The notes beneath the pieces were generated by a model. It searched no databases. It was not told the origin of the DNA and saw nothing but the letters and a program-made list of their open reading frames with translations. From Tricharina praecox (taxonomy: Eukaryota): 64,000 nucleotides of DNA. Numbering within the stretch: the first letter of the stretch is position 1; every line of letters starts with the position of its first letter. A program made the position numbers and the translations under genes. Below are positions 15,623-51,414 of the stretch, piece by piece. The stretch lies in assembly GCF_024521635.1 (NCBI RefSeq), contig NW_026250411.1, positions 1 to 64,000 of the forward strand. The letters run 5' to 3'.

Positions 15623-16593
15623 CTACCATCCTCCCAGAGCTATCTGACCATCCGCCACCGCGACGGCCAGCTTCTCGCCCATCCAGTGGGGTCTAGCCTG
15701 CCTGAGCGGCCCCTCAAACTCCACGATCTCATTCCCGCCGACCCAGAAGGTGCAGCCATTCACGGGCGATCCGATCTTCTGGTCGCCGCTCACGCCGCCC
15801 TCGCGCCACTCCTTCCCGACCGCAGCGAACAGCATCGCCTTAGCCACACCCTCCGCGGTATTCGCCGGGCGCGCCCCCCACTTCGGGCCGAGCCTCGCCG
15901 CCATCGGCGTCATCGTGAACCACGGCGCGATGAGGTTGACGGTGATATCGCCCCACTCGCCGACCGTCGGGCGCAATCCGCGCATCAGGCCGAGCACACC
16001 ATGCTTGGCAGCGCAGTAGTTCAGGAACGGCGGGGTATCGAGCATCGACGCGGCAGAGCCGGTGTAGACGATGCGGCCGTAGCCGCGCTTCCGGAACTCG
16101 TGGACGGCGAGCTTTGTGATCATCAGTCCCGCGGTGAGGTTGACGGCGAGGTCGGGAAAGGTTGGGGGCAGCAGCGCGCCGCTCTCTTCGTCGTACGTGC
16201 TCTCGAGAAGCTGTTCGCGGCCTGTCACCCCCGCGTTCGAGTACACGATGTCGATCGGCCCGTGTGCGGCGGCCGCCGCGAACAGCGCCACGAGGGAATC
16301 CCAGCTCGTCACGTCGCAGTGCACGTACACGACGCGCTCGGGAAAAGACGCGGCGAGCGCGCTGCCCGCCGCGTCGTTGACGTCGCCGATCGTTACGGTC
16401 GCGCCGTTTTCTGTGTGTGCGGGGTTACGTCAGTGTGGGTGTTTCTCCGCAGCAGGGGGGTGCGGATGTTCCCGTGCGTACCGTGAAGGAGTCGGACGGT
16501 TGCCTCGCCGATACCCGTGCTGCCGCCGGTTATTATGACGTTTTTGCCCGCGACGGCGGAAAAAATCGTGTCGTCTACGGGGATGGAGGACAT
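15623..16593 (-). CDS. Short-chain dehydrogenase/reductase (299 aa), 1 intron
   Basis: join(16482..16593,15623..16410); intron 16411-16481 GTACGC..CTGAC..CAG. Motifs TGGSTGIG, NAG and YCAAKHG. Confidence 0.93.
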
Positions 16594-16729
16594 TTTCGTG
16601 CGGTTTCTGGCTGTCTGGAGAGAGGTGCGATGCGGAGGATTTCAATCGAACATCGTGGCGTCTTTCCCGCCCTTTTCTACGAGCGAGAAAGCGCGTAGTA
16701 GTCTCCACCTAGTAATCGGTTGAGCTTCG

Positions 16730-16915
16730 GCATTGCAATGTGGGCCCTGAAAGCGGGGCGCTGGCGGGGAATGTGGGGTAGCGCCTCACGATAAGGATGT
16801 GGGGACGGGTCGGAAGCGAGCCTGCCGGGGACAGCGACGAAAAGAGGTCCTGAGGCCCTGATCTGCGAAAAACAAACTCAACACCTACAGGAAAAGCACC
16901 ACCAGCCCCACCCTC
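16730..16915. promoter_or_regulatory. Divergent promoter rich in GYGGGG sites (C2H2 Adr1/CreA-type)
   Basis: GCGGGG 16753 and 16764, ATGTGGGGTAGC 16771-16782, GGATGTGGGGACG 16795-16807, CCCCAC near 16906. Confidence 0.5.
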
Positions 16916-16943
16916 CCCTCAATTCGCCGACATCAACAACGAT

Positions 16944-18502
16944 ATGACGGACAAAACTACCATCGAGCACCCTACACTCGGTGCCATCACCGGCCTCAGA
17001 ACCGGCGGTGTCGCCTCGTTCCGCGGAATCAGATATGGAACTCTATCCTCCCGCTTCGCCGCTAGCGAGATCAACAACACCGCACCACCCGACGGCGACG
17101 CGACAACATACGGTCCCGAGCCGCTGCAGAACCCCGCTGCCTGTGGTATCGAGTGGTTTCTCATTGGCGCACGATGCGCGCCGGAGCCCGGTTTCCAGCA
17201 GAAGTGGAGCGGCACCGAGTGTCTCAACCTGAACATCACCGCTCCCGTAACTCTGCCAGCAGAAAAGCTGCCGGTCCTGGTGTTCATCCATGGTTCGTGA
17301 CACGTCCCCCTCGATGCTGTGAACCTTCTGACCGTTTCCTAGGTGGCGCAAACATGCACGGCGCCGCTTCGTGGCCGCAATACAACCCCAGTCCGCTTGT
17401 CGCGACCTCCGTCGCCTCCTCCACGCCGATCATCGTGGTCAGCATCAACTACCGTACAAACGTCTTCGGCTTCCTTCACATTCCCGGGCAGGCCACAAAT
17501 CGGGGACTGAACGACCAGCTCACGGCCCTCGCGTGGATCCGCGCCAACATCGGAGGCTTCGGCGGAGACCCGGAGAACATCACGCTCATCGGCCAATCCG
17601 CCGGCTCCGCTGCCGTCGGCTTCCACATCGCCGCCGGTGTCTCCGGTGTGAAGCGCGCGATAATGATGAGCGGCGACCCCGGGCTCATGGCCGCGCTCCC
17701 GGAGGACGTGCACGCCGCCACCTACAAGAGCGTGTGCGAAGCGCTGTCCATTCCGTTCAACGACCTTGTCGAGTCCCTGGAGTCCGCGCCACAGAAGGCG
17801 TTCTACGAGATGCTCCCGGCAGACATAATGTACCGGCCGATCTCGCCGCTGCCCAGCGGCTCGGGCGACAAGATTGCCGCGCTGATGGTGGGCGACACTG
17901 CGCACGACGGTGGCATCCTCGTGCCCCTCTCCCTCGGCCCCGCCAGGGAGGGCCTCGCGGAAACACTCTGCGAGTACTTCTCGATCCTCCCCGAGTCGTT
18001 CAGCCAGCTGTACAGACTGCAGCCCACGCTCTCGCCGCTTGAGGCGCGCTCCAGATTACTCGATATCCTGACCGACTGGGCGTTCTCCGTTTCGGCGGTG
18101 GCCGCCGCAAAGGACGGAGACGTCCCAACGTACCTCTACCACTTCAACCAGGAGAATCCGTGGCCGGCTTCGCAGTTTAACCCCTGGGCTGGCCAGGCGA
18201 ACCATATCCTCGACCTTGCGTATCTGATGGGTAACTATCCGCAGCTCGAGGAGGGCAAAGTCGGCGAGGAGATGAGAAAGGCGGTGGTGACGTTTGTGAC
18301 GGGTGGGGAGCCGTGGGAGAAGTATGCCGAGAACAAACAGGTGGCCGTTTTTGAAGATAAGGACGGGAAAGGGAAGAGCGTTACCGCCAGTGGCGAGAAG
18401 GACGGAAGGGAGAGGGCTGCGGGCTGGTGGAGGGTGGTAGAGGAGGCGGGAGGGTTGAATAAGGTTCGGGGGGTCGTCATGGGTGTGTTGGGGAAGTTGT
18501 AG
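16944..18502 (+). CDS. Type-B carboxylesterase (502 aa), no signal peptide, 1 intron
   Basis: join(16944..17292,17343..18502). Motifs ECLNLNI, FIHGG, NYRTNVFGF, FGGDPENITLIGQSAG and catalytic His region NHILDL. Confidence 0.93.
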
Positions 18503-19079
18503 GCGCTGGTTTAGTCGTCGTCGTTCATGCTGCTTAGTCATGGGTCAGAGGTATAAAAACAAACTTTTGATATCGGTTTCATTGCATCGCATTCGACCGT
18601 GGGCGATCACTGCGCGCTACAAGTATGATTCTTAGCTCCGCCCAGTTGTATATGGGTCACTCCACTGATGTTGGTGATGAGAGTAATTGCAGAGGAGTAT
18701 CGCGCTTCTATGATACACATTGCACTCTTGTTCCCTCAGCCCTGCTCTTTCATGCGTGGCGACTCACTCGCCTCTTTCTTCCCCAGCCCAACCCATCTCG
18801 TGAAATGTTGGAGATATACGATAGAATAGGTAGGTGGAGTATATTTCCAACAGGTTATAAGCTCGGCACAGCGAGAGTTATCCTCTGGCTCATCCTTTTT
18901 TCTCACAATCGCCCTTTCCTACAACCGACTCGACTGGAAACTCAAACTTTACCCCACACCCCACACTATTCGCCCCACATGCAGCAACCTGCAGCAACCT
19001 GCATCAACCTACCTACCACCAAATGGTCCCCACACAGCATAATGTTGTCTGCCACCACCATGAAAGGAGCAATGTATGT

Positions 19080-19595
19080 GGGATAGATAGAGGATCAGAT
19101 AAGATAGGAGGAGGGGCTAGTCGGATCAGTGGATCCATCATCATGGCAATATCCGCCCTGGGCATACGTACACACCCCCGTCGTTTCCACGCGACTGTCC
19201 AACTCGACTTTCATCGAGTGGCCGGATGTGGCTTTCTCTGCCCTCCGTTCTGGCCTTCCCTGACAGTATTTGAGTGCACCAAAGAAACAACACTAGGAAG
19301 AGACACAGTCCGCTCCCTGGGCTCGTCCCTACCCCACCGCAAGTCCCTAATCCGCCTCGCCGTCTCCCTCAGAGTCCTTCTCCTCCAGTCGCCGCAGCTC
19401 CTCCCTCTCTTCCCGCTCCCTCAGCTCCCACTCAGACAGCTCGCTTGCTGCATCTTCCTCATCAGCCTCTGGGATCTGCCTGCCCATAGTAATGGAGGAA
19501 AAGAAGTCGAGGATGACCTCGCTGCACGGCCCGTCAGCGAAGAGGTCCCCGATCTTGAATCGGTCCTTGCCCCTCCTCGTCTCCTTCCGGGCGCC
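19080..19595 (-). mobile_element. 5'-truncated LINE (non-LTR retrotransposon) relic: ORF2 C-terminus plus 3' UTR
   Basis: ATG-less frame ARKETRRGKDRFKIGDLFADGPCSEVILDFFSS...SEWELREREE (stop 19347-19349) resembles the C-terminus of fungal LINE ORF2 as I recall it. It ends in a TATC-like simple tail near 19080-19105. Confidence 0.55.
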
Positions 19596-21062
19596 TTATC
19601 ATCTGAAGTATCTCCAACATGAAACCGGATTCGAGACGAGTGATACTGCATGCGATTACCATCACTACTGAGGGAATCTTGCGATATTCACACCTGTCGG
19701 CCCGCAATAGCCAGGGAGTGAATATCCGAGCCCGGCCTAACCACTACTATACAGTCTCCAGTGAGATGCGAAGTTTTTCTTTTGGTGGAGTTCTCAATCA
19801 TTATTTTATATTCGACCCAGCCAAATCTCGCCAGTTTTAGGTTGACGATATTTATCCGTTTCCGCTTCTCGGGAGTCGGTTCTCAGCTGTCCCTTTGCTT
19901 CCTTCAGCTCTCGAACACACTCCCACCGTCCCACGGGATTGTTTGGCGGTGAGGATGCAAGGGCTTAGGGGGTGATCACTTCTCACGTGGCGACACCGCC
20001 GCCACCGCGAGTGATACCCGATGCATCACTGTGGCACAACTTCGCGTCGCCGAGTGGTGGGTACTAAGCGTTTGGCACGCCGGCTCAACGGCAGCTAGAT
20101 GGCGCATCCGCGTTGCATTCTGGGAAGAATGTCTACGCACCACGCACCGCTGTGCTTGCTCGGGGGAATGGATACCGTCGCCAAGCAACTTGGCAGCAGT
20201 TATTCACTTCGATGCTGAAGATTCAAGCACTGATTGCGTCTCGGTTGGGGAGGTGCGGGGAGAGCGGGATCGAAGAGTGATCTGGAGGCCACATACATAC
20301 GAGCGCGTGGGAAAGATGGCCCATGGGTGACACATACGGGCGAAGCTTAAATCTAAAACCCACGGGCCTGGGTAATGTGGTTCGAAGCGACTGGACTACA
20401 TACAAGCCTGCACCCTATGCCCTACAATCGCATCCCGGTGCGTTACATCCCATTCGACTCCTCCAAGAAAGTGTGCGTTTCCATGATTCCGCATACAACC
20501 CGAAATCGAGAAGATGCCAGTGCAACGGCCCCGCTTTTGGGCAGCGCGAGCTCGGCTGGCATGAGTCACATGACTAACCGCGGTTCACGGCCGCTTCCGC
20601 TGTCGCTGAAAGCCCAAGTTCTCGGTTAGTTAGTGCTCACGGCCGACGAGCCGGACGGGAGCTACCAGTGCGCCCCTTCGCTACGATCGTGCCTATCTAT
20701 GCCGGATATCCGCAAAGCTAAGCTTTGCTTGCTGTAACTAAGGCCGGCAGTCTCCCCGGAGAGCCTTTATTGAGGCCCGTAATGTGGGAGGTTCCAGATT
20801 TGCGAGGGAGCTGGCTGTAGTTATATCGCCCCAAGCCGTCGGCTGCAAGGAACATGCGGATAAACGTTATATTAACCCAAGGACTTGCCCCGGCGCGGGT
20901 ATCCACTTCCTACCCTACAAATCCTATACATACAGGTACGGTTATCTAAACGGGGATATTAAGTCGGTGCTCATATGACCCGAGGGTGTGTATATAGACC
21001 GCGCCATCCGATGATGATGGAAAAAACTCCCAGTAGTAGTGCCCTCCAATAATCACCGCGCA

Positions 21063-22367
21063 ATGATGCTGTCCCGATCATTTACCGCCCTCAGCCTCCT
21101 ATGGCTGCAGCTGCAGTCCGCAACAGCCGCGACTCCCTACTCGCAACTGATGCTCGACTCCGTGATCGCGCGGTCGACTCCGCTGGGCCTCAACGCCGCC
21201 GGGAAGGTGACGACGACGTACGAACACGGCGTGATCGAGCGCGCGCTGCAGATGGTGTACAACGTCACCGGCGACAGCAAGTACTACAACTACCAGAAGA
21301 AGGGCGTCGACAATATCATCGACTCGAATGGGAAGCTGCTGGATTACGATCTGACAGTCTATACGCTCGACGATATGAGGCTGGGCCAGGAGTTCCTCCA
21401 CCTGTATAGGATGACGGGTCAGGCGAAGTACAAGAACGCCGCCGACACCCTGCGGAAACAGATCAATGTCCAGCCGAGGAATTCCGAGGGTGGGTATTGG
21501 CACAGGAACGTATACCCCAACCAGATGTGGCTCGATGGTTCGTCTCCAGTCCTCCCGTACTCCCCCCCCCCCCGCATTCCCGGCCTGACGAGCCCGATCT
21601 CCAGGCCAATACATGCTCAATCCCTTCTACGCCGAGTACACTTCCATCTTCCAGCCCACAAACACGACAGCATGGAACGACATCCTCCTTCAATACCAGC
21701 TGATCCACGCACACACGCTCAACACGACCTCGGGGCTCCTCGCACACGGCTACGACGGCGGCAAGACCGCCTCCTGGGCGGACCCCGTGACCGGCGCCGC
21801 GCCTCACGTGTGGATCCGCGCGCTCGGCTGGTACACCATGTCGCTGCTCGACGTGCTGGACTACTTCCCGCCGAGCCACGCGGGGTTCGCCGAGCTGAAG
21901 GGGTACTTCACGTCGTGCATGGAGGCGGTGCGCGCCGCGGCGGATCCGGCGACCGGTGGCTGGTGGCTGGTCATGGACCAGCCCGGCAGGGACAAGAATT
22001 ACATCGAAAGCTCGGGCACGGCCATGTTTGTCTACTCGTTCCTGAAGGGCCTGAGGGTCGGATATCTTACCGGCGCGTCTGGGAAGGATCTGGCGGCTGC
22101 GGAGAAGGCATACCAATACATGGTCAAGCAGTTTGTTAAGGTCGCGGCGAATGGAACCGCGGACTGGCTCGGGACGGTGGAGGTCGGGAGTTTGGGCGGG
22201 AAGGCGGATTACGATGTGAGTTTCTCCCCTCCGATGACGAGAACTCTGGGTAAGGCGGAGTGACTAACAGTAATGGATAGTATTACGTCAATGTGGCGTT
22301 GAGGACGAATGATCTGAAAGGTATCGGGCCATTTGTGTATGCCAGTGTCGAGTACGAACGTCTATAG
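21063..22367 (+). CDS. Secreted GH105 unsaturated (rhamno)galacturonyl hydrolase (390 aa), 2 introns
   Basis: join(21063..21537,21605..22215,22281..22367). Signal peptide, TLDDMRLG, EGGYWH..YPNQMWLDGQYM, WIRALGW, NYIESSGTAMF, NDLKGIGPF. Confidence 0.93.
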
Positions 22368-25300
22368 GCGTACGGTAGTTAGCGAGTCGCCTCTTCACTC
22401 GGTGATTGTCCGGATACATAGCAATAGATGTAAAAACCAAATCATAAACAAGCGCTTGAACATATTCTCTAGAGTAACTCCACCATCCGTGTCCGCCAGT
22501 GTCCGAATCTTTTCTCCCCTTGGTGATAGTCTCGAATCCTGATGAAGAGATGCTCCAACATTCCGCCACAACTCTCACAAAACCCGACCACCTGCTGGAG
22601 AAACGTCTTTGTAACTTGATTTCAACCAAAAGGTTCGATCAGCAAGCTTGTCGCTTGCGAGAGTTAGAATCAACGTAAAGGGATGCAGTATCTACACGAG
22701 GCGGCGACATCGGTTGCATATAAAGGCTTTATGCCCTTTTCCCCCATTCATATTGCATTCGTAACACAAGTTCCCATCTTCACCGACCTGCTCGTTTTCT
22801 CACCCGGGACGTTTTTAGAAGGTGACAGGTCACGGGAAATCTTTGGGATGCTAGAGGCTGGAGATTCCCTATTTGCCTGCTTGACAGCAAACCGCCTTCT
22901 TCTTCTCTGGGGACGAAGAATATATCCCGCATCCGTGCTTCTGTCGGAGTTAGCATACAGGCACCAAGTATGATAATATAGTCGGACAGCATGTTAAGCC
23001 CGCTGATAGATCGTAATTCCGCTCGGCAACATCCGGCCCTCGCCTCTCAGTTTCCTCCATGGACGGCGATGCATGCCCGCTCGGATATCCACGCCGCAAA
23101 ATCCGCAAAGATGGCTGTCCACGCGTTGTTCTCTTGGCACCTCTTGGCACTTCGTCGTCGTCGCTCACACCTATATGAGAGATATTATAACTGGAGTCCG
23201 AGCTTTGTCCTAACGTTCTTCTGACAACGGTGTTCGGTAGTTGTGGCCCGGGCCCGCGTGAGGGGCGTGGCCAGGTTCGAGCCGGTATATGTCTATGTAG
23301 GACTAGGATGCAGCTACCTCAGAGCCTGTTCGATGTATATGTCACTATTAAGGAGACAGACGGAGCTTGCTCCGTCGGTCTTGAACGTTGAGATCACTTG
23401 TGAGGTCAGAGGGAACTGTGTAACATGCAACGTTTTCAAGTGATGCCGATGTAGGTACTTGGGAATAATAATCAAGTAATCTACGGGGACGAAAGAGAAC
23501 ATTGATAGACTTTACTCGATAGTCCATGGAACGGAGTCAGACGGATAATCTTCCCCCACGGCGGCAAAGCGAGGCGACGATTCAGCCAGCTATAGCCGAA
23601 TTCGCGAGTACAGTGCTAGTGTCCCCAGCTAGTATGTACATATCCGATTTGGCGCTTCGTCGGATCGGCGTTCACATTGGTACATTTGACTGCGGGAATA
23701 TTCATGTCTACAGTGGAAGGTGGATGGTGCTGTGCTGTGCTGTTGTGGCGTAGATGTGGCTGAAGATAAGATTACCGGGGAGATGTAGTGTACTCTACCT
23801 AGTGTGGGGTTCGGGGGCTAGACACGATGCGGTCGACTCAACGTTGAAATGTTCGCTATTGCTTCTTTTCTGTTCGGCTTGTCGGTCGGTCTCTCGTTCA
23901 ACACAACAGAAATTATCCACCACCGCAGACATTATCACCAACACTGCAGAGTTACTTTGAGGTTGTTCAGTCTGGAGACCACAGACTGCTTTTCTTTCTT
24001 GTTCCTTTTTAGTCAATTGAATCAGTCTCATCGGTTGTCCGTACCCCTCGAGCCTCGAGGGTCTCTCACGATTTTCGTGAGCTTTCAGGGGAAGAAAAAT
24101 ATGCTCGCCGCGCAGTTACAACTTACTCGGTTGCGCTCAGTTGCTCCGCATACACTGCCGTATAATGGCCGGCTCCACTGCCCTCACGGACGACCTCAAC
24201 AAATACTTCCCACCCCGGCGCCACACGTCCACCTCACGCCACATGGTACCCTCTCCAGCTCGGCATTTGAAACGCGGGATTCTCAAGAGACCGAACTTCA
24301 ATCTCTCACCGGCGTGTCCTCTACTCTCCCCCGTGTTCGAACCTTTAGGCTATTGGAGACCTCGGGGGTTGAGTGTGAGTGTGAGTGTGAACTCTCTCGC
24401 ATGCGGGCCCGAGCGTTGAGCGCTGGCATCGGCGTACGCAAGCTGACTTTCTTGGCCGACAGGCACAGGGGAAGAAATATGCATATTCCATATATACTCA
24501 TACCTGGGTAGAGAAGCGAGATACGGACCACGGAAGTGTACCGTACCGACGCCGGAACCATTACCGCCCCCGCGAGAGGCCGAGCGGCGGCCATGGATTA
24601 GGGTCCCAGAGGCTTGCGATGCACTATCGACACAAGTCGTCACTGACGCGGCTCGAGCTCTACATTCGCCAAGTCAACCAAGATCTGGGATCAAATCGTA
24701 TGTACCGATGAATGGCCGGTGCCGGAAAAACATGTCTCCTCCTGGGTGGCCATGGTTCAGGGGACTTGCGGAACGGACATACGAGTCAAGCTCAAGCTCT
24801 ACGTTCCCTGGAAACTACCTAGGTATAGTACGCAATACCCCAGATCTCGATTCGCTGACCGGTCAACACGAACTCGAGCTCGCCGGAAAGTGGGTCGCCT
24901 CGTGGAACTGTGGGTAGTGAGTTCGGCGAAGAATCAGGTGACTCTGCCGATTTATTTTTTGCCTACATAGCAAGATCCTACGATACCGAAGGCCGAAGTT
25001 GGCTATCATACCTAGCCCATGCGATCTGATGCTCGTCTACGTACTTGCCTACATAGTTATTCGCGGGCGAAAGCACCGAATACATTGGGGCTGAACTACA
25101 CCGAGGAGTGCCGATCTTGAAGCCTGAAGATTCGTTTCTGACGATCTTTTCGACTGCTCGTCCCGGAGCCCCGTGTGGAAAAACGTAGGTGGAGTCTTCC
25201 CCGGACAATATATTGCACGAACACGAGCACATTAATATCTACGTTATAGGGTTGCTGACAGACAGGCAGGAACAACCCGAGGATAGATTGCTTTACCTAG

Positions 25301-26261
25301 TCTACCCGCCACCACCTCGCCCTCGTCTCCACACGCAGGCACACAGGCACCATATCATACATTTTCCGTCGTGTAGAGTAAGGATCGAGCCAAAACCAGC
25401 TTATATGCCGAGCCAGGAGTAGGAGCGGGGGCGAATCCCCATTCTGGCAATCTAGTCCGCTGTCAAAAGACGTGGAAAGAAAAACCACCATGGCATTTAA
25501 CCACCAGCGCGCGCGATGGATGCACCCCGGATTGACAGGGGTGTATACTCCGAACGCCCGCAACGTTTCAAGGACGTCAAAACCCCGAGAACCGAATGGC
25601 ACGTTGCGGCGGCTCACTTACCGAACTACAGTTACGGGCCGTTGGGAAAGAGGGCTACGTAAGTACGTATGCCTCCCCAATATACCTGCAGCGGCACTAG
25701 AGGGCTTAAATCGCTTGGCATCGTGAATTCTCCGCCAGGATGGGTTGCCCGCGCTTGGCGTCGTCAATTCTCCGCAAGGATGGCTACCCGATGGAGTTGT
25801 CAGAATGCTATATGTGGCGAGAACGCTGGATGTGAATGTCCTTGAATCCCAACACCCCACACGCCTGGAAAGTCCGACGTCCTCGCATAGTATCAAGGGG
25901 CGATGACGCTGATCCCATTATATGCAGTTGTCACCTGGATATTGGTTCTGCCAGAATTCGGAAAAACAGGCCGCCGAGGGGTGCGGACTCAATCAATCAA
26001 TCTTTTTCCATTCCGTGGCCATGGTGTGAGTTGGCGTAAAGGCGAAACACAGCTTCTATATAAACCACAGACATCTCCTCCAGGTTCAAAATCCTCATCC
26101 ACCAGCTTCATCTTCAGCAAGCCAGTTCATCCACTCAAGCCAGCCTTCCTTCATTTTCACAGCTCCAGCAGCTTCGGACAAAAAGCCAGCCTTTTTCATT
26201 CTTTTACCAACAACAAAGCTCAAACTTTTACCTCCAACTTCCGACTCAATCAATTGCAAGA

Positions 26262-27060
26262 ATGCAGTCTATCGTTCTCGCCGCCCTTTACTTCGCCGCC
26301 TCGGCCGCCGCCGCCGCGACTACTACTTTCCCCAGCGCCGCTGGCTCCACCACTTTCTCGGAGCCATACCGTGTCTCGGGCACTTACGATGGTGGCATGA
26401 AGCGTTTCGGACGCGGCCACGACTGCGACTCTGATGAGGACGGTGGTGAGGAGGGTGCCGTCTTCATTCTCGAGGATGGAGCTACCCTGAAGGTTTGTCT
26501 TCCCCCAATCCTCCCATGATTTTCTCTCCATGCTCACATTTCTCTCCCAGAACGCCATCATCGGCTCTGACCAGCTCGAGGGAGTCCACTGCGACGGCAC
26601 CTGCACGATCCAGAACGTCTGGTGGGAGGACGTCTGCGAGGACGCGCTCACCCTCCTGCAGGAGTCGGGCACCTCGTACGTCATCGGCGGTGGTGCGAAG
26701 AGCGCCAGCGACAAGATCATCCAGCACAACGGCAAGGGCACAGTCGTGGTTACCGACTTCTACGCCAACACCTTCGGAAAGGTGTACCGGTCGTGCGGCA
26801 ACTGCAGCGGCAACGGCGGGCCCCGCCACGTCATCATGTCAGGCGTCGTCGTCACCGGAGGAACCGTCTTTGCCGGTGTCAACTCCAACTACGGCGATAC
26901 CGCCACCATCTCCGACAGCTGTGGCGCTGCCCCCGCTAAGATCTGCCAGGTCTACGAGGGCTGCGATAAGGCTGAGGGTGACTGCGAGTCTGAGAAGCAG
27001 TCCACCGGTTTCGATGGCGAGTCGTGCATCGACGGTGGCAACAACAGTGCTTCTTGCTAG
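26262..27060 (+). CDS. Secreted pectate lyase, family PL3 (246 aa), 1 intron
   Basis: join(26262..26492,26551..27060). Signal peptide, AVFILEDGATLKNAIIG, EGVHC, CTIQNVWWEDVCEDA, DKIIQHNG, GKVYRSCGNC. TATAAA near 26059. Confidence 0.95.
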
Positions 27061-29794: not shown

Positions 29795-29826
<32 letters not shown>

Positions 29827-32999: not shown

Positions 33000-33317
33000 G
33001 GTTTGTGTGTGGGATATTGGGGAGGAGAGGTGGTGAGGGGAAGTGACGTCACGCGGTGGTGAGGTACCTATATGTAGATGAGGGATCTACGCAAGGATGG
33101 GAAGGGTGAGAAGGAATCATCGCATGTGATGAGTCTCATGGATCAGCCGTCTAAAATTTCTGTGGGAACATCACGATATATATTCGAGCGTAGTAATTCT
33201 TCAGAGGTCAAATCGCTATCAAATCCGAAACCACGGCTTGTCTTCTATTTTCCCGCCTACACTGCTTGTATCCATCAAGATTCATGACCATCAAACTTCC
33301 ACATGAATCGAATGTAA

Positions 33318-35641: not shown

Positions 35642-35990
35642 GACGTGTGTGACAATCAAGGGTATTCAGGCTCGTTGGTGTTCAGCTCTAGAGATATTAA
35701 AGTTAGAGTATGACAAACGGAATTGCGGCGGACTATGGGAATGGATAGGTGAAGGGTGAATCTTTCATCGGGCATGTTGTGGGAGGGGATCAAACAACCA
35801 CCCGATCGGTCTTCATACCTGAGAAGCTCTTGAGTAGTCAAAGGACACACTGTAGCTGTGCATTGGTGGGGGAGTGTTGTGAACGTCAGCGAGAGATGAT
35901 TCCGGAGGTATGTTGGTGTCGTGAGATCAATGGTTGAGCAGCGATACTTTGAGTAGAAGCTGTGAGGTTACACTCACTCGGTTGAGGGGC

Positions 35991-36847: not shown

Positions 36848-36850
36848 TCC

Positions 36851-40036: not shown

Positions 40037-42958
40037 TCAAAATCCCTCATGCACGCCCCTAATCCTCTCTGCGAGGATCCTCATGCCGTTTCCCAGGGCC
40101 GGTGTGACTGTATAAGCGTTTAACGTCAGTGACCAACCCAGACCAACGGGAATCAAACTATAAACGGCGGGGCACTTACTTCCCCACACCCACGTATCCG
40201 CCAGCAGGTCACCCCACATTCTAGCCAGACTCTGGGTCAGAGGCCCGCCAGCGCTCAGATCGAGATCTGCCTCTTCGAGGAGGTGGCGCACGCTGTCGTA
40301 GACCCTCATCTCCTCGGCGTCCCACTCGTTGCGCGGGAGGTTTTCGAGAGAAAACATCCATCTCAAGAGGAACAGGACTATTCACACTGCGTCAGTAGAT
40401 GATGGGGGGGAATGGATGGGGGAGGGGGCTAGGTAGCACGCACTGCAGTCCCAACCAGCGATGGCGTGATCGACACTCCAATTTAGCGCGGCGGTCTTAC
40501 GCACCATAACGTGCCCCGCCCGTACTGGCATCTCGAGTGCCTCGGTGGCTTTTTCTGCCGCACGGGTGACAGCCGCACTGCGCGGCGTGCCCTCCAGGAC
40601 GTAACTCACCACCGCCTCTAGGTCTAGACTCCCTTCCTCCGGACGGATGATTGCCCTCATCTGTGACGAGGCGGGCTCGAACTGTGTAAACTGCCTGATG
40701 TAGGCCTGTCGCAGTAAGCCCGCCGCGCAGAACCATAGAGACCCGCCGGCGTTTGGCGAGATGTTTTGATGTGTGTAGATCAGACAGTTCTGGAGGCGGC
40801 CGAGTAGCTCCTCTGATTCTTGGGCCATGGTGAAGGGCAATATACTCGGTGCGGTGAAGCCGAACAGTTGAAGAGACTTCCGACATTGTGTGACCTGCCA
40901 TTGCTGCGAGAGGAGACCATGCACCAGGACCAGACCACCGAATGCACTGGGCCCGGGCTCCAATACTGGAGGCGCGCCTGGTAATTGAGCCCCAAAGTAG
41001 TACTCCAGAGCGTTTTTGAATTTAGGGTCCGATACTGTGAAGTTGAGATTGGCTTCCCACACTTCGGCGTTGGGAGACTCCCAAAGATCCTCGGAAGCCG
41101 GTAACTGAAGATGGACCTCTGCGCAAGATATTGCAGGTGGGAGGTTGAAGGTAATGGTGATCAACGATTGCAGGATGTATATGCCATAACAGAGGCGCTT
41201 GAACGACTCGATGTCGACCCAGTCGCGCCAGGTTTGTTGTTGCAACGGAATCTCTTCCCGACGAAGAAGCAACGCCTGGGCAGAGCGGAAAAACTAAAAC
41301 TATCAAGATATATTTTGACAGGAGGTAGGGATTATGGAAATTACCACGGCATATGAGCCCTGCTCGGCCACGGTATCATTGATGAGCTCTCGCTCTGCGC
41401 TCCAAATCCCAAAGAATCCAAGGAGAATCTTGGTGCGCATCAACCAGGCCTTTCTATCCGGCTCAACGCGCTTCCATTTGACATCTTCCACGGCCACGAA
41501 GCGTTTGGTCCACTCGTAGAGATACCTCGCACGCCGTTTTTCAAGGCAGTGCTGTGCGCCGATGCAGCATACCGCAAGAAGAAGGAGCGCCTTGGTACCT
41601 TTGGGATAGAATGTGCCGAGATGCAAGATCGGAAAGTTCTTGTGGAAGCTGTTGAAGTAGCTGTCGAGGTATCTCTGGAGGGTAGTGGAATTTGGCAGAC
41701 AGAAGCCCATCATCAGATCTCGGGGGTGTGATGCCGACAGATCCTGCAGAATCCAGTCCTTTGTGGAATCATCGATATTGAAGGCCGGTTTCGGCACCGC
41801 GCTTCGGTTGATTGACTGTATCAGTGATTGGTTGGAAACATCCGAAGCGTTCGTTCCTCGTCGCTTACGGAATTGTGAGGGTGTCGGAGGGATAATATAT
41901 TCCTCGGTGGGGGTCATGACGTCCATCGAATCGTGGAAGAGGTCCGTCATCGAATCACCCTGCGGTGCCACCGCCTCTTCGAGTATATTTTCAAGTCCCC
42001 GGAACTCTGGGAAACTGTGGCCATGGTTTTGGAAGATGCCATGGACCGCTGCAGCGGCCGCGATACCATCGATGGTATTGTGCGGCGAAGACCCCAAAGC
42101 GTCATCCTCCCTCTCGGCGCCCGAAAAGAGCTCGGAGAAATCCAAGTCGCTCTGAAGCGTACCAAACTCCACCTCGCCGTTCCTGTCCTCGACCGGCGGC
42201 CCGGGTGTGTTCTGCTTCCGACTGATTTGCTCCGAGGCGAAGGACTCCGGCGGGGTCAAGGGCTGGATTACCTCGGTGATGGAATGGATCGAGTGGATGG
42301 AGTGGACGGAATCTCCTCTCGCACGCTGGTGGTGAACCGATGCTGGCGACGAACCACCGGGAGAGAGGCTCAAGAACGTTTCGCCGTCCGCCTCAGCGAA
42401 GCCCATCGTGTGCGCATCTGTAGACTCCTGGAACGAGAGCAATGTAGTCGTCGAATCCGCATGGAAGTCCGTGCCCGCTTCCGAGGCTCGTCGCCGTTTC
42501 GCCGGCCGGTTCGAAGATTGTGGCCGACTACTGCTGTGCACCGTACGTTCGTGTCTCACGAGCAAGTCTCTGCAAGAAAGCTTATTGTCAGACTTGGTAG
42601 CTCTGGGATTCTCGAATTTTCAATGACGCTCGTACTTTCTCGAGAAATAGCATCCGCAAAAAGAGCATCCGAATGGTTTCTCCAGGGTGTCTAAATTGAG
42701 GAGCACGCAACGTTAATTTACCGAGCACACCGGACCGCCGCCTTGTCCGAAAGAGAAGAACTCACGAGACCGCTCATGCCTAACACAATGCTCACTCCTC
42801 CGGAACGTTGTGCTGCAATGTCCGCACTTGTAGATTCTCTTCTCCTTCTGCGCAGCCTGGGCGGCCGCCGACGACGGCAGGGTCAGGATGTGCTGGAACG
42901 CGGCGGCCGCATCGTGCTTCTTCGACTGTTTTGTCTGCATCTTGAGAGTGAGCGTCAT
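40037..42958 (-). CDS. C2H2 zinc-finger + fungal transcription-factor middle-homology domain protein, Adr1/AmdX class (863 aa), 5 introns
   Basis: join(42766..42958,42636..42690,41345..42569,40444..41293,40180..40377,40037..40107). Fingers CGHCSTTFRRSEHCVRHERSH and CSFCGCYFSRKDLLVRHERTVH; YFNSFHKNFPILH; W..WVDIESFKR. Confidence 0.92.
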
Positions 42959-43676
42959 ACGATACTGATCTGTATCCACGTCCGGGAAATCCGGGGAAGC
43001 CGACAATCTCGATAAGCAGAGGGGGGAGCGAGTTCGAGGATCCGCTTCTGGCGTGACGGAGTTTGCGTTCAGTGGTGTGCCGATGGTGGAGGAAGAAGCA
43101 ATAGTGAGCTGATGATGATGGTGATGATGATTGATGGAAGGGGACTACAACCATACGCATCGTGGTGGTGGTGGACCAGGACCCAGGAGTCGGCGGTGCA
43201 GCGCAGCGCGCACCCACACGCTTGTGGGGCCCCAGATCCGGGCCATTGAGCAGAGTTTCCCACGAGGGCTAGACGGAAGACCGAAACCCGCCACCAGTGT
43301 CAGAATGCGGGGAAAAGCGTGTGAATCGGACCAAGTCTGGGGTTCCGGAACAGCGGTCGGGGCGAGATGTGGGTCTCGTTTTTTAGATGAATTTTCATCC
43401 AGTGCGGCTAGCCGCAGGGGGGTTGGAGCAACTGGCTGCTTGTGATACTTCAACTGTTGATGGCTGGAGCGACTGCTGCTGCGGAATAGCGTCATGAAGA
43501 ATTGGCAAACGAGACGCGACCAAGGAACGATGCAGATGCGAGCGCCATGGGAGTGCCCACGGCAATGCTCGGTTACTAATCGCTCGCAGCCCCCCACGCG
43601 AGAATTTCTCCACCAACGGCTCGACGCGATACTGCTTCGGAAAAGACGCGTTTTCATCGTCTCGTGATCCGCATAC

Positions 43677-44068: not shown

Positions 44069-44832
44069 ACTACCTATCCCGGACACCCCGGGGGTTCCAT
44101 GGGCTTACATGTTCATTACCATAGCAGCCTGCGTACTTTGGTTACAGTATTAGAGTACCTCCATAGCAACGTGTATCTAGGCAGTTCCAACGTCCAGATC
44201 GCTCGTATCCGTAAGCCAGATGTTGGAACTTGGAAGGACCGCCGTTATCCGCCCGCTTTATCCACCACAGCCAAACTTTTAGCAAAGCCTCCACAAGCCA
44301 ACTCCACTGTCCAGTCTCAGCACTTCCACGATCTTCTATGTCACGGATTCGCACGCCACAGAAGCCACTTGCCATCAATCAACACTCTCCATCTCTCTCT
44401 CTGGCTTGCGGAGTGGCAACTCCGCCAGCAACTCTGCTGGCTCAAGTACCAACATACATATGCGAGCGGGCAAGAACTCGGGCAGAGTTAGAGTAGAGTA
44501 CTAATGGTTTTGCCGATTTTCCGGATTCGCACGCTAACTAGCCGTTGGTGATCTTCATCGGAACTCACGTCGGTTCATGGTACCGTGCATACAGTTGACC
44601 GCGGTTCGAAAAATGCACTTCTCGTACATATAGTACTGTGCCCGCCGTTCTAGCCGTGTCGTTTCGTGGCTCACGGTTTTTCTACAAAAGGCTGCGAGAG
44701 ACTTCCCTGATCTCGTAGATGCGAAGTGGCACGTAGAACTAAAGAAGGCACCCGGTTGACACAAGTAGGTAGCAAGAGTTTCAAACTTTCCCCAATCGTA
44801 AACCATACAATCATAACAGAAAATTGAAAAAA

Positions 44833-46497
44833 TCAAACGACGCATTCGCCAGACCCCAACCCCTTCCTCGCGGTTCCCACATACTTCCTCTTATGCTCGA
44901 CCTGCAATTTCTTCAGCAGCTCCAGCTGTGGCGCCACCAGGTCATCCCACATGGTGGGATCATGCTCATGCTTCTTCTCGCTGTTCCACGCCCAATCGGT
45001 GATAGTGAAAGCGCGGCAGCTCTCAAACATGATCGCGATGGCACCCTCGCTGATCTTCATCTCTGGCGGGGCCGTCTCGCTGGCCTTCTTCCACTCCGGG
45101 TAGCTAACTCCGTGCGGTACGAAGCCGGACTCGAAGCTCACACCGCCCGGCTGGAAGCTGTCGCTGCGGCCGCCGTAGTTGCCGTAGATCAGCCCCATGA
45201 GCTCCGAGGCGGAGTTGCGGTGGTAGTACGGCGGGCGGTAGGTCTGCGACGCGACGTCCCAGCGTGGCGAGAAGATGAGGAAGTCGGCGAGCGGCGCGGT
45301 GGGATCCCGCGAGGGTGCCGTGAGAACACAGAAAATGGACGGGTCGATGTGGTCGACCGAGATAGAGCCGACGTTGACGAACTTGGTCAGGTCGTATTTG
45401 TACGGGACGTAGTTTCCATGCCAGGCCACGACGTCGAAGGGCGAGTGCTGCTGCACGCTCTGGAAAAACTTGCCGCCGAGCTTGTACACGACATTCCACT
45501 GCTCCTCGATGATCTCGAATGCCGCCATTGGAGTCAGGAAGTCGCGCTTGTTGGCGAGGCCGTTGGCGCCGAGCGGGCCGAGTTCGGGAAGGTCGAAGTT
45601 GGAGCCCCACACCTCGAGGATGTAGCCGCGCGACGGGCCGTCGGGTAGGTCGATGCGGAAACGCTGGCCCCGCTGGATGACGACGATCTCACCCGGCTGC
45701 ACGTAGAGAGGGCCGAACTCGGTCTGGATATCGAGCGCTCCTTGCTGCGGAACGATGAGGAAATCGCCGTCCGAGTTCACGAATGCACGTTTGTTCATCG
45801 AGGTGTTGGCGCAGTAGACGTGGGTGGCGATACCGTCTCGGAGAGTCGGGTCGCCGGAACCGGCGAGAGTCTTGAGGCCGTCGATGAAGTCGACCTTCTC
45901 TGTGTCTTTGGGGAGCTCGAAGGGAAGCCATGCCAGCTGGGTAGGCGAGACGTGGATCTTGGGGTTCAATGGGAGGAAGCAAGACTCGGTGTCTTTGTTG
46001 TCGGGCATATCGGTCTACAGGCACAACCGACGCGTCAGTACAAGCGTTTCTTCCACATTTAGTGCCAATGAAGGGGGACATACGAATCCTTGGTGAGCCA
46101 CAGCTGGCCGCACGCGGTAGAGGTATGCATTCTTGTTGTGGGCGCGGGGAGCAACAAAGGCTGTAGCCGTCATCTGCTCGGCGTAGAGGCCGAATCGCAC
46201 TTTGCGGGGATTGCTCTGGCCATACGGGAGCGTACCGGGAATCGCCTCGGACTCGAATCTAGAACAACATCAGAAGTGCCCGATCGGAGACGGGGATCAC
46301 ATCAAACGCACGTATTTCCGAAGCCCGATTGGTACTGCAGCCTGTCAGCGGGATGCAATGCGCAGTGCACTGCAGCAGGTGAGGGGATAACTTACCGTGT
46401 AGGGATCATTCTTGCGCGTCTTGAACGATGGAATGTCGCCATCCTTCTGGGTCTCCGCCCAGTGGAAGATGCTCTGGTAGTCTTCGGTGGTCGCCAT
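44833..46497 (-). CDS. hmgA: Homogentisate 1,2-dioxygenase (493 aa), 3 introns including a 23-nt exon
   Basis: join(46396..46497,46312..46334,46084..46258,44833..46014). YQSGFGNTFESEAIPG, GLYAEQ, LPELGPLGANGLA, HSPFDVVAWHGNYVPYKYDL, iron ligands in PPYYHRNSASELMG and VPHG. Confidence 0.96.
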
Positions 46498-46719
46498 CGT
46501 CTCGTTCGGTATGTTGAATAACTATTGTGCTGTCGGGCTGGCGGGCTGGCGGGCTGTTAAGAGCGGGTACGGTGACTATTCGACTTCTTCGAGAGCACCT
46601 CTGGCTCTACTCCTTATAAGAACTCTACAATTCATCTCAGCGTGATGGCCAGATGAGTTCATGGAGCCCATCGCACTAGGAGACTACCGAAGACGACACC
46701 GCGGCCGTTGTCCCTGTAA

Positions 46720-47170
46720 CTTTTGTGGGGTTCATCGGAGCTCTTTGGTCGTCCCCACATCCGATCAGTGCAATCCGATTTGGTCATCGGATCTATGGTA
46801 CGCTGACTGACGGCTGACGTGCAAGCGAGCTCACAAATCACAATGTGTACGGAAGTAGCTGTCGGCCGCGCGAACAGGTCGTGTCGGTGCGCAACGTCCC
46901 TGCATAGCTCTTGGTCAGTTCTTGGTGATGATGTGGGGTAGCTGGTGGATCTGGGATGGTCCCCGAACCTGCGTGCCGTGTGCTGGTGGGGACTAACCAC
47001 ATCCCTGTCGCGATGGAGCCCACCTTCACTCGAGCTCTCCCCCACCAATGCGCGATGCCCCGCCATATGCACCGGCTTCACGACGCGAATCGATAGATAT
47101 GAAAGCTCTCGGTATACTGGATCTTCGCAGAGTCGGAAATCTCACGACATCCGAGGAAACACCCCACCTT
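46720..47170. promoter_or_regulatory. hmgA/SDR divergent promoter with GYGGGG sites
   Basis: TGTGGGG 46724, CGTCCCCACATCC 46750-46762, ATGTGGGGTAGC 46931-46942, GTGGGG 46986, CCCCGC near 47058, CCCCAC 47162. Confidence 0.5.
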
Positions 47171-47209
47171 CCATAGCACCCTTCGTTTACCTCAACCACC
47201 GTGCCTGCC

Positions 47210-48082
47210 ATGAGCTCCGAATCTCGCGTCGCGCTCATCACCGGCGCCGCCTCGGGCATGGGTCTCGCGCTGGCTAAAGACCTCCTGGCCAAAGGCTGGC
47301 GCGTCGCCCTCCTCGACGTCTCACCCGCGGGAGCCTCCATCACGGCCGAACTCGGTGCCTCGGCAACCTACTTCTACTGCGACGTTTCCTCGTGGGAGTC
47401 GCAAGCCGCCGCGTTTTCCGGCACGTTCGAGAAGTGGGGTCGCATCGACTTCACTGCCCTCAACGCGGGCATCGATGATAAGGACGACCTCTTCGGCCCC
47501 ACGGGCGACGAGAACGGGCAGCCTGTAAAGCCCGGGCTCAAGACTGTCGCCGTTGATCTGATCGCCGTGTTCTACGGTATCCGACTGGCAATGCATTACT
47601 TCCGCAAGCATGAAGGCCGCGGTGGCAAGATCGTCATCACGAGCTCAGATGCCGGATTGTACCCGTTGATTGGAGTGCCGCAGTACACCGCGTGCAAGCA
47701 TGGGGTTAGTCGCCGTCCCTCCAATCAATGTACGAGCTATGGCTGACCTCGAAATCGATAGCTGGTGGGACTCACCCGGTCGATGGCGCCGCTCTTGAAG
47801 AAAGAGAACATCACCATCAATGCGGTGCTTCCGGCGTTCGTACCGACAGGTCTTGCTCCTCCCGGCCTGGTCAAGGCCTGGCCAAAGGAGAATGTCACGC
47901 CGATGAGCACCGTCATCAAGTGCTTCAACATGTTTATCGATGACGATGAACTCAATGGGCAGACGGGAGAATGTAGTCAGGAGACAGTGTATATGAGGAA
48001 GCAGGCCGAGTATGCCAATGAGAGTCAGCGGTGGGGGAGGGAGGAGGGCGGGAAGGTGTGGGCTTTGGTTTATCCTGGTTAA
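47210..48082 (+). CDS. Short-chain dehydrogenase/reductase, 15-PGDH-like (271 aa), 1 intron
   Basis: join(47210..47704,47762..48082). Motifs ITGAASGMG, NAG and YTACKHG. Confidence 0.94.
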
Positions 48083-49335
48083 GGGCTTTTATTCTGCACA
48101 TATTCAAATTGATTCGCGTTACCTCTACATAGTCCTCATCACTGCTTCTCTGCTTACCTGCGTTCGCACCCTGTTGGCGGGTTGACATGATGGATATTCA
48201 ACATCACCAGATAGTCGGACAGGTACAGTACACGAGTGAGCTGTGATGATGTGAGTCCCTGCCGGATCAGGGGGCCAGCCAACCTCCAACGCTGCTCCAA
48301 CCACGGATCCAAGCAGACTTCTAAGTATCAGGAGCACGCCTACAGCCTACGAAGAATGGTAACGAAGGAAGCGTAATGAAGGAGTATTCTGTACACGTCC
48401 ATACTTGAGATCAAAAGTAGCAACAAACGGACTGGAATAACAAACAAGGCCGGAGGGCCATCGAGTACGGCTACTGGTATGCATTGGACGTCCATTTCGG
48501 CATTAACGAGAGCCATCTCCCATCTCTGTTATGTAGTCTGGCATCTCACAGCCATCGTCGAGTCTCTCAACAAAGTACCGAGAATAATTCTGATCTCTCG
48601 CCTGGGAGCTTCTCCAGCGAGCCGTGCCCGAGCCATTCCTCACTGGGCAAACCAAAAGAATGTTGGAAACTGGTATATACATCCGGGCTATATCCGGCCG
48701 GGGCGGCAGGGCTTGGTCGGGGACGGCCCCGGACGTTATGGTGTTCACGGCTGCTTCTCGCGGGGGTGTTGCTAAGACGGTCGCTAAAGCTTGGAACCGG
48801 GGGACTCTCTTGTGAGCCTTCTGTGCACCTGTACCGAGACCACCACCAATCAATTGCTTGCCCGCCTAAACATCATCAACTCATCCCCCCCCCCCCCCCC
48901 CCATCGTCCCGTTCTACGTACAGGCCGCCCAACGACTGGTATTCACTAGCGAAGCCAAATTGAGATCCAGCACGCATGGGCCATGGCCCCACCGCTCCGC
49001 TCCTCGTTCCCTACCACTAGCCTAGAAACCGCTGACAAACTGATGTAACGCTCCACATCGTGAAGGAGCCTTCGAGTTTTGTCTCTTGGGCGTGCCTCAT
49101 GTGCGGTTGTGTAATTGGCAGTGTACTGATCCCGCACTAGACAGCCGTCTCCCTTCCCGTGCATTCTCGCTTGGTAGATCGCCCCGCCCCACCATGGCCA
49201 GGATTTGCAATGCATCGTTGTCCCCGTGTACCCCACCAACCCCACCACGACTCTCGCCATCACTATCACTACCACCCTGTGCGCCCAAAATGTCGCTTAT
49301 TTGTTTTTACGATCCAACAATCTTCAAGCCGAAAT

Positions 49336-50974
49336 ATGTCTCTCCAGCACACGTCCCTCAACGCAACCCTGACACCCGTCCGTGTATCCACGGCCCCGGA
49401 TATCGTCCAGTACCGGAACATCAAGTTCGCGTCTATCTCGGAGCGGCTCACACATTCGAAGTCGATCAATGACTGGAACGGCGCCTCGATTGGATCTGAG
49501 AAGCATGGGTACGTATTCGCTGATGCTTACATGGCGGCTACTACATACATGCTGACGAGGAACGAAACAGCCCCCGATGTCCGCAGGTATACTACGACCT
49601 GAATACCCTTTTCAGAATCCCCGCCGAGCAAGCCCCTAGCTGGGTGGAGCCCGAGGATGAATTCGAGTGCTTGAACCTTCACGTCACGGTCCCTGCCGGC
49701 GTAAAGGCGGGGGACAACGTGCCGGTCCTGATGTGGCTGCACGGTGGTAGCTTGGTAGCTTCCTGTTGCGGAGCGAAGTCGGGGGTGAATGGTGAACCGA
49801 CCCATCCACTTTCCTCGGACCGGGGCAGCTAATGGCATGTAAAAGATCCCACAAAGCTGGTTGCAAAATCGGTTGAAGACGGCACACCGATCATCTTCGT
49901 CGCGATCAATTACCGCCTCGGATTCCTCGGGTTCGCACACATCGACGACGAACTCACAAATTTCGGACTGTTTGATCAGAAGCATGCCATTGAATGGGTT
50001 CACCGGCACATTCACGGCTTCGGTGGAGATGCGGTATGGCACTGCTCGTTTCGTCTTTTCCGTTCCGTGTACATACTGATGGGATCCAGAGCAACATCAC
50101 ACTCGGTGGCGAAAGCGCAGGCGCTATAGCGACGCACTTTCACACGCTTTCCGCACATTCGTCGCTTCTCAAGCGCGTTATCCTGCAGTCCGGCACCGCC
50201 ACAACCATTCCGGCACAGCCCGTACCCGTGGGAGAGTTTTTCAGGAACAAGCTCTTTGCCGAGCTCTCGGTTTCCAACATCGACGAGTTCAGGAAACTGG
50301 AAGCGACAGAAATTTGCCGTGCGCAACAAGCGATCGGCGTCAACACAATATTCCCCGTTGCAACCGGGAGCTTCTGGAGCAAGGAGCCGTGGCGAGGTGA
50401 AGTCCTGATTGGCGATGTCGAGAAGGAATACAGTCTTTTCACGACAGGCATCACATCACTGTCCGCCCCCGCCATTGAATTTCCGGACGTTCCAGCCTCC
50501 AAGGCAATCCTTGACGGATACGGCAACAACCTTGACGGAGTACTCAAATTCTCCGGAGATGCGAAGTTCAACTACCATACGGAAATGTACCACCGCGAAT
50601 TCCTCCGCGACTCGCCAAAGACGTACCGTTACCTCTTCGACGCTCCAAACCCGTTTGTACCCGAGCTCGGCGCACATCACGCGGTCGACTTGCTGTACCT
50701 CTTTGGAGGTGTGCAGCTATCGGCGAGGCAAGAAGCACTCGGTGACGCGATGCGCCGTATATGGGTTCGGTTTGTGGCTGGCGTTGAACCGTGGAACAAG
50801 GAGGGCCTCGAGAAAGTGCTCGTCATCGATGCGGATGGATGTAGAGTCAGGGATGCGGAGGAAGTGAAGAAGAGAAGAAATGCGGAGCAGTGGAAGGTTT
50901 TGGAGGAACTGGGGTGGGAGGCTGTTTCAAAGGTTATTGGAGAGGTGGTGAGGGGGAAGATCAGGTTTGAGTAG
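49336..50974 (+). CDS. Type-B carboxylesterase (488 aa), no signal peptide, 3 introns
   Basis: join(49336..49508,49571..49791,49846..50033,50090..50974). GPRCPQ, ECLNL, WLHGG, INYRLGFLGF, GESAG, HHAVDL. The second donor (GTGAAC) is less certain. Confidence 0.9.
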
Positions 50975-51389: not shown

Positions 51390-51414
51390 GGGGGGGGGGG
51401 GGGGGGGGGGGGGG
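51390..51414. repeat. Poly-G run (25 nt)
   Basis: Homopolymer. Confidence 0.95.

Follow-up and report, generated by a model that had tools for sequence, protein, structure and literature searches.

Results

Two divergent gene pairs and a neighbouring zinc-finger gene

We analysed a 64,000-nucleotide (nt) stretch of Tricharina praecox DNA (NCBI RefSeq assembly GCF_024521635.1, contig NW_026250411.1, positions 1 to 64,000 of the forward strand; the window, below), in which a preliminary description had proposed that two pairs of short-chain dehydrogenase (SDR) and type-B carboxylesterase genes, together with a homogentisate 1,2-dioxygenase gene (hmgA), form a regulon of a local zinc-finger transcription factor (TF). 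Genes were mapped with a Pfam scan of the 113 open reading frames (ORFs) of at least 140 residues and by direct reading of the sequence, a procedure by which intron-split genes could be missed. The closest protein matches of the window genes came from Pezizomycetes (Wilcoxina, Sphaerosporella, Trichophaea and Geopyxis).

The first pair consists of SDR1 (15623-16594, minus strand; Pfam adh_short, 5.4e-28), which has two exons, the N-terminal one carrying the TGxxxGIG motif and starting from an ATG at 16594, and Est1 (16945-18502, plus strand; Pfam COesterase, 6.2e-41; nucleophile motif GQSAG), in which a signal peptide was not evident. They diverge from a 350-bp intergenic region (16595-16944). 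About 30 kb further on, hmgA (44833-46497, minus strand; HgmA_N, 1.9e-82, and HgmA_C, 7.4e-46) and SDR2 (47210-48082, plus strand, with an intron at 47705-47761) diverge from a region of 712 bp (46498-47209), and the second esterase gene, Est2 (49337-50974, plus strand; Pfam COesterase, GESAG), follows SDR2 in tandem. Both esterases thus carry the GxSxG nucleophile motif, and both SDRs were assigned by their Pfam domain. The TF gene lies nearby (40037-42958, minus strand) and encodes two C2H2 fingers, in a region interrupted by two introns, and a Fungal_trans domain. The arrangement of the genes was therefore as originally described, from both the Pfam matches and the start codons that were read.

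Two words are common to the divergent promoters

Direct reading and word comparison placed both of the promoter words named in the preliminary description exactly where it had put them. The word ATGTGGGGTAGC occurs on the plus strand at 16771-16782, between SDR1 and Est1, and at 46931-46942, between hmgA and SDR2; GGATGTGGGGACG occurs on the plus strand at 16795-16807 and as its reverse complement, on the minus strand, at 46750-46762. When random pairs of segments of the same sizes were drawn from the window, a single word of 12 nt or longer was common to 114 of 3000 pairs (3.8%), whereas two or more such words were common to 5 of 3000 (1 of 300 in a smaller run of the test). Residual homology did not explain the sharing: the SDR1 and SDR2 proteins are 37% identical over 129 residues and Est1 and Est2 29% identical over 328 residues, so that the pairs are not recent duplicates, and DNA similarity between the two promoters stops at the edges of the words. 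A recent duplication was rejected as the origin of the words on both of these grounds.

The sequences at and around the words were also over-represented. Seven copies of ATGTGGGG were found in the window against 2.24 expected from shuffled sequence; the two divergent intergenic regions account for four of these, and one (40212) falls within the coding sequence of the TF. The pattern GTGGGGWMG, in which the 3' flanks TAG and ACG recur, was present in eight copies against 2.7 expected, a number that none of 100 shuffles reached.

Two further repeats were noticed in the same regions. A 15-mer, CTCCCCCACCAATGC, in which a CCCCAC site is joined to a CCAAT box, is present at 47037-47051 in the hmgA/SDR2 intergenic region and, as its reverse complement, at 35860-35874, about 225 bp upstream of a DUF6697 gene. 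In length it exceeds the reported words, and its hmgA/SDR2 copy is deleted in a related locus (L001, below). A palindrome, CATTGCAATG, lies in the SDR1/Est1 region (16730-16742) and TTGCAATG in the Est2 leader (49205-49212), the 8-mer occurring three times in the three 5' regions considered below and once in the remainder of the window.

GTGGGG sites are concentrated in the same regions

It had been claimed that each divergent promoter has at least five GYGGGG sites, and this was borne out, with five in the SDR1/Est1 region and seven (six GTGGGG and one GCGGGG) in the hmgA/SDR2 region; none of 1000 dinucleotide shuffles reached the count of either. Among 1010 six-mers, GTGGGG/CCCCAC was the most enriched in the three flagged 5' regions (13 copies, p = 1.4e-9; the other ~62 kb hold 52). 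The four densest 400-bp bins for GYGGGG in the whole 64 kb started at 46701 (hmgA/SDR2), 16751 (SDR1/Est1), 48951 (Est2) and 18951 (3' of Est1). In the 500 bp that precede each start codon, GTGGGG was found three times for SDR1, three for Est1, four for hmgA, six for SDR2, four for Est2 and once for the TF gene, compared with none or one in each of a further 12 upstream regions; the start codons of these were first-ATG guesses, and one esterase, at 37.8 kb, is included twice with alternative starts. The enrichment was carried by the T variant: the ratio of GTGGGG to GCGGGG was 17:5 in the four top bins versus 48:58 elsewhere (Fisher p = 0.009).

The bin downstream of Est1 corresponds to a cluster (18952-19337, minus strand) lying 450-830 bp past the Est1 stop codon. 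Four TGTGGGG, the tandem TGTGGGGTGTGGGG among them, fall within 80 bp there, and the cluster holds both variants of the word, ATGTGGGG at 18973 and GTGGGGTAG at 19329.

Contigs cover the hmgA/SDR2 intergenic region and the TF and Est2 leaders

Contigs from two sequencing runs (X2 and X3, labelled as guesses) could be placed on the TF-hmgA-SDR2-Est2 side of the window. In the pieces shown they differ from the window by no letter and they skip GT..AG intervals, and so they behave as spliced RNA. Their joints define a 63-nt intron in the hmgA 5' untranslated region (UTR) (46625-46687, minus strand, CT..AC on the plus strand; found in both runs), the SDR2 intron and an intron in the Est2 leader (49045-49140). 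The Est2 leader (48894-49336, plus strand) has a first exon of at least 48894-49044, and that of the TF gene is covered by X2 as far as 43567, which makes it at least ~610 nt without an intron (42959-43567). In both runs a single unbroken contig covers 46688-47703 and with it the whole hmgA/SDR2 intergenic region, suggesting that the divergent transcripts may overlap or abut. Stretches without contig cover (~44200-44420 and 48108-48760) are uninformative. A long poly-C run (48886-48903) lies just upstream of the end of the Est2 leader contig and may have broken it; a further stretch very rich in G/C runs lies downstream of Est2, at ~51351-51750.

The TF gene, hmgA and SDR2 are linked in other Pezizomycetes

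A metagenome scan with SDR2 exon 1 as the query gave four orthologous loci, L001 (88% identity) and L002-L004 (82%), with which promoter conservation was compared for the hmgA/SDR2 intergenic region and the 5' region of the TF gene. The gene order of the window recurs in L002, with TF at 539-3005 (minus strand), hmgA at 4871-6356 (minus) and SDR2 at 10001-10859 (plus). In the named genomes adjacency was judged from accession numbers: in Wilcoxina mikolae and Trichophaea hybrida the accessions of TF and hmgA follow directly on each other within a single contig, and in Geopyxis carbonaria a distance of four accessions separates the TF from an SDR with 59% identity to SDR2, again within a single contig. 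These results support a physical tie of the TF gene to hmgA and SDR2 across several Pezizomycetes. Relatives of Est2, Est1 and SDR1 were not found in L001-L004 at E <= 1e-5.

Between hmgA and SDR2, where the window has six GTGGGG sites, L001 keeps two, precisely those that belong to the words. The core of the hmgA-side word (46750-46762), ATGTGGGGA, is kept in both L001, where the site reads GTCCCCACAT.CGATC, and L002; for the SDR2-side word (46931-46942), GTGGGGTAGCT is kept in L001 within a conserved block of 80 nt. The L002 intergenic DNA is otherwise unalignable and aligns only at TCCCCACAT, whose distance from the hmgA ATG (~250 bp) matches that in the window. Both GTGGGGACGA and GTGGGGTAG are present in this L002 region, GTGGGGTAG also being found towards SDR2 in each of L002-L004, and ATGTGGGG and GTGGGGTAG occur once each in the 20.5 kb of the L002 locus, in both cases between hmgA and SDR2. 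For any given 9-mer, a simple calculation predicts 0.03 occurrences in 3.6 kb. Being enriched, common to promoters that are not homologous and partly kept in orthologous hmgA/SDR2 promoters, the words are supported by sequence comparison as elements that behave like real cis elements. The phylogenetic check suggested in the preliminary description accordingly came out in favour of the TF-hmgA-SDR2 order and of the word cores, and not of Est2, which is not syntenic.

In the leader of the TF gene, local alignment with L002 showed a block ~70% conserved around both GYGGGG sites (43195-43345), so that the conservation of these sites is not site-specific. A global MAFFT alignment of the TF 5' regions and blastn-short found little beyond short words. 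The same block holds the palindromic GTGGGGCCCCAG.

Some other features of the related loci were recorded. L001 has ~1.03 kb of extra DNA (~125-1150) at the position of the hmgA 5'UTR intron, and the 5' part of this intron with the end of exon 1 (46644-46694) is strongly conserved there. In L004 an ORF of the endonuclease/reverse-transcriptase type, like those of long interspersed nuclear elements, lies upstream of SDR2 (222-1316), and hmgA and the TF gene were not found within 10 kb, unlike in L002 and L003.

The fingers of the TF are of the Adr1 type

The recognition helices had been read as RSEHCVR and RKDLLVR, and the window sequence and its relatives agree on this reading. The patterns RxEHxxR and RxDLLxR are present in the window TF and in all of the Pezizomycete relatives, which were collected with the 438-residue exon as query and then with one of the relatives, P0003. 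The two-finger structure of ADR1 (2adr_A) aligned end to end over both fingers of P0003 (residues 38-93, E = 6e-14), so the assignment to the Adr1 type holds. In the canonical finger code Arg at -1, His at +3 and Arg at +6 read GGG, and Arg, Leu and Arg at these positions read GTG. Finger 1 (GGG) and finger 2 (GTG) of the TF would then presumably specify 5'-GTGGGG-3', and the enrichment of the T variant fits the Leu at +3 of finger 2.

The TF has no Cys6 motif. Its Pezizomycete orthologues have a conserved N-terminal flank, DAAAAFQHILTLPSSAAAQ, next to the fingers they share, and full-length relatives were confined to this class, homologues elsewhere being at most 28% identical; none has been functionally named. 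Of 8000 candidates scored, 27 were relatives at E <= 1e-10, among which none was named Adr1, Rsf2 or Tda9, and there was no yeast protein among the matches listed. Distant members of the family in other fungi have the helices RLEHLQR and RKDLLVR or RSDLLVR, and hence several paralogues of this specificity may coexist.

The enzymes do not point to a single pathway

The hmgA product is an ordinary homogentisate dioxygenase, 86% identical to the Wilcoxina enzyme and 75-81% identical to many others across the Ascomycota. With this 75-86% identity to named fungal HmgA proteins it is highly conserved, and it is not a special paralogue. Judged from relatives in the PDB, SDR2 resembles 15-hydroxyprostaglandin dehydrogenase (15-PGDH) and 3-hydroxyacyl-CoA dehydrogenases, and Est1 resembles carboxylesterases of the pNB-esterase/Est50 type. 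The preliminary description had taken an SDR and an esterase as a module and joined ester hydrolysis, oxidation and ring cleavage into one catabolic route. This is not supported, as the members of the two pairs have diverged to the degree given above and nothing links their substrates. The Pfam scan of the 64 kb, which could miss intron-split genes, did not find hppD, fahA, maiA or hmgX.

Other genes in the window

Between the two divergent pairs lie pectin-degradation genes (21018-27057), namely a GH88 hydrolase (unsaturated glucuronyl hydrolase; from ~21063, plus strand) and a pectate lyase of family PL3 whose N-terminus resembles a signal peptide (from ~26262, plus), which are apparently unrelated to the motif. 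They are followed by a flavin adenine dinucleotide oxidoreductase (31276-33086, minus), the DUF6697 protein (33554-35665, minus) and a PHB-depolymerase-type esterase (~37852-38730, plus).

Discussion

The reading that we tentatively favour, on sequence evidence, is a small regulon of the neighbouring Adr1-like TF that is centred on hmgA and SDR2 and probably includes SDR1 and Est1. The words would be candidate binding sites, made up of GTGGGG followed by TAG or ACG and often preceded by AT, in two compact bidirectional promoters, and the TF, with two Adr1-type fingers that would read GTGGGG and a Fungal_trans domain, is the best candidate for the protein that binds them, although we hold this with some reserve. 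In Pezizomycetes the TF gene, hmgA and SDR2 make up a conserved unit of three genes. At a distance of 30 kb, the SDR1/Est1 pair is a probable further target, since the same extended words are found there, and it joins the regulon through these words only. Membership of Est2 and autoregulation of the TF gene appear doubtful, and CreA may well compete for the same sites, which would couple induction to glucose repression. From the observed enrichment, shared words, partial conservation, synteny and finger residues we infer which protein would bind, and likewise whether it would activate or repress and what would induce; the inducing substrate would most plausibly be tyrosine, phenylalanine or other aromatics that yield homogentisate. 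Of the proposal that the TF co-regulates both SDR-esterase pairs and hmgA, the part that stands is the one carried by the enriched shared words, the TF-hmgA-SDR2 linkage and the matching fingers; the parts concerning Est2 and autoregulation are unsupported, and CreA fits the same sites.

Several results weigh against this reading. The sites that had been noted upstream of the TF gene are present (GTGGGG at 43224 and GCGGGG at 43307; 43224-43312, plus strand) and are no commoner than chance, their number being reached in 346-457 of 1000 shuffles; lying as they do in its 5'UTR, they give no support to autoregulation. Those noted before Est2 are likewise present (CCCCAC at 48987, 49187, 49231 and 49240) and are marginal, 18-32 of 1000 composition-keeping shuffles reaching their number. 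As these sites are in the 5'UTR, and no relative of Est2 lies beside SDR2 in L002-L004 (nor anywhere in the 9.6 kb downstream of SDR2 in L002), Est2 is not supported as a member. More generally, the contig cover indicates that many sites are transcribed rather than upstream of a start site, including those of the TF gene, all four of Est2 and at least some of those between hmgA and SDR2; since the contigs can neither place start sites nor separate overlapping transcripts, we regard this as a caveat and not as a refutation. L001 has lost four of the six GTGGGG sites between hmgA and SDR2 by deletion or mutation, together with the AT before GTGGGGTAG at the SDR2-side site, and in Sphaerosporella brunnea the TF gene and hmgA are on different contigs. 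The cluster at 18952-19337 has no evident target gene, as a Pfam search (E <= 0.1) of eight small ORFs at 18861-20626 and five elsewhere in the window gave no match and an Atlas search of the local ORFs gave none that was usable. Finally, the background for all of the enrichment tests is this single 64-kb window, and the p-values are optimistic because the reader who chose the flagged regions knew the motif beforehand.

The main rival to the TF as the binding protein is CreA, and it is possible, if rather doubtful, that the sites are ordinary CreA/CRE-1 sites (SYGGRG) for carbon catabolite repression of dispensable catabolic genes, the TF acting through some other element. Clustered sites are typical of CreA targets. 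Every word site fits SYGGRG, there are 6-7 SYGGGG per 500 bp, and in the SDR1/Est1 region the words occur together with GCGGGG sites. We take finger 2 of CreA to have Glu at +3, where the window TF has Leu. One study reports that CreA/CRE-1 binds both GTGGGG and GCGGGG, that GTGGGG repeats alone give glucose repression in reporters, and that motif multimers do so in three fungi (PMC11395683), which again counts against the TF; its authors suggest that Aspergillus niger CreA may bind GCGGGG more strongly (PMC11395683). Set against this, the enrichment in the window is specific to the T variant, the 12-13-nt identity with its conserved TAG and ACG 3' flanks exceeds the 6-bp CreA core, and the cell-wall genes of the window (GH88, pectate lyase and PHB-type esterase), typical CreA targets, have only 1-4 SYGGGG and 0-1 GTGGGG per 500 bp. 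The evidence tilts towards the local TF over CreA, and both may bind. That the sites are real and are bound by another, unlinked C2H2 factor of Adr1-like or Msn2-like specificity, the TF-hmgA neighbourhood being unrelated, seems to us decidedly unlikely. The identical helices of distant family members would allow it, and the cluster at 18952-19337 and the 15-mer in the DUF6697 promoter take the motif beyond the proposed regulon, but the TF-hmgA(-SDR2) linkage is kept in four lineages and it is in exactly the hmgA/SDR2 promoter that the motif is conserved.

We consider it very unlikely that the sites have no function and reflect C-rich leaders, the G/C-rich composition of the promoters and two chance matches chosen after the fact. 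Several CCCCAC sites do lie on the coding strand of C/A-rich leaders near the SDR2, Est1 and Est2 ATGs and are not conserved, the Est2 enrichment is nearly gone in composition-preserving shuffles, and 3.8% of random pairs have one 12-mer in common; against this stand the failure of every shuffle to reach the counts of either divergent promoter, the rarity of random pairs with two common 12-mers, and the fact that both word sites are those kept in L001, with their cores recurring in L002. Last, the words might mark upstream start codons (AUG UGG GG..., giving 'MWG' upstream ORFs) that act in translation from the 5'UTRs. In each of the four words there is an ATG that reads in the sense of a neighbouring gene, contigs of the spliced runs extend over the intergenic DNA, and at the hmgA-side word both L001 and L002 keep the ATG. 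This idea is exceedingly improbable all the same, as L001 has lost the ATG at the SDR2-side word although GTGGGGTAGCT is kept, GTGGGGACGA and GTGGGGTAG stand in L002 without an ATG, and the peptides after MWG are completely different between copies and species.

Returning to the local TF, a wider proposal can be made, which taken as a whole we think on the unlikely side. Homogentisate catabolism in Pezizomycetes might be under a lineage-specific Adr1-like C2H2/Fungal_trans factor, and not one of the Zn2Cys6 HmgR type, that reads an extended 9-10-bp site, (AT)GTGGGG(TAG/ACG), partly through its conserved N-terminal flank, with a dispersed regulon of hmgA-SDR2, SDR1-Est1 and an unannotated locus at ~19 kb. 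As the TF sites overlap CreA sites, the activator and the glucose repressor would compete at the same bases. If the assignment to the TF is right, an uncharacterised regulator family restricted to Pezizomycetes would gain its first function and a binding motif, likewise its first; the conserved hmgA step in the breakdown of aromatic amino acids would have passed to the control of another class of factor than in Aspergillus; and the locus would be a compact natural case of coinciding activator and CreA sites. The named relatives are soil and post-fire fungi, whose use of aromatic carbon is of ecological interest. A literature search pairing Pyronema with homogentisate found no papers, and one for a C2H2 regulator of homogentisate dioxygenase showed none among the papers listed.

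Compared with known systems, the window sites resemble those of CreA/CRE-1/Mig1 in having the same 6-bp core in clustered copies in the promoters of catabolic genes (PMC11395683), but differ in their preference for the T variant and in their conserved flanks; the window TF itself carries a Fungal_trans domain and is not CreA. The tyrosine-degradation cluster of Aspergillus fumigatus has an hmgA that, as here, adjoins a pathway-linked transcription factor, HmgR, which activates the cluster genes on tyrosine (PMC3203155). HmgR, unlike the C2H2 factor of the window, is a Zn(II)2Cys6 protein (PMC3203155). The partners also differ, hmgA in the window being accompanied by an SDR and, further off, by an SDR/esterase pair, with no hppD, fahA, maiA or hmgX in the Pfam scan. 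The fingers themselves are like those of Adr1 of Saccharomyces cerevisiae and Candida albicans and of the Rsf2/Tda9/YGR067C group, which also have two N-terminal C2H2 fingers. The recognition helices of Adr1 are, we assume, R-x-E-H-x-x-R and R-x-D-L-L-x-R, as in the TF, and the Fungal_trans domain of the TF is one that Adr1 presumably lacks. None of the 27 relatives of the TF is named Adr1, the TF has its own conserved N-terminal flank, and the target genes differ. The Adr1 motif, RCCCCM (PMC10653825), overlaps ACCCCAC, that is GTGGGGT, whereas GTGGGGACG (TCCCCAC) does not fit its R. As with Adr1, the genes on which the TF sits are catabolic and concern non-preferred carbon. The case as a whole is a promoter-motif argument of a familiar kind, a cluster-linked transcription factor with shared sites, rather than a new type of system.

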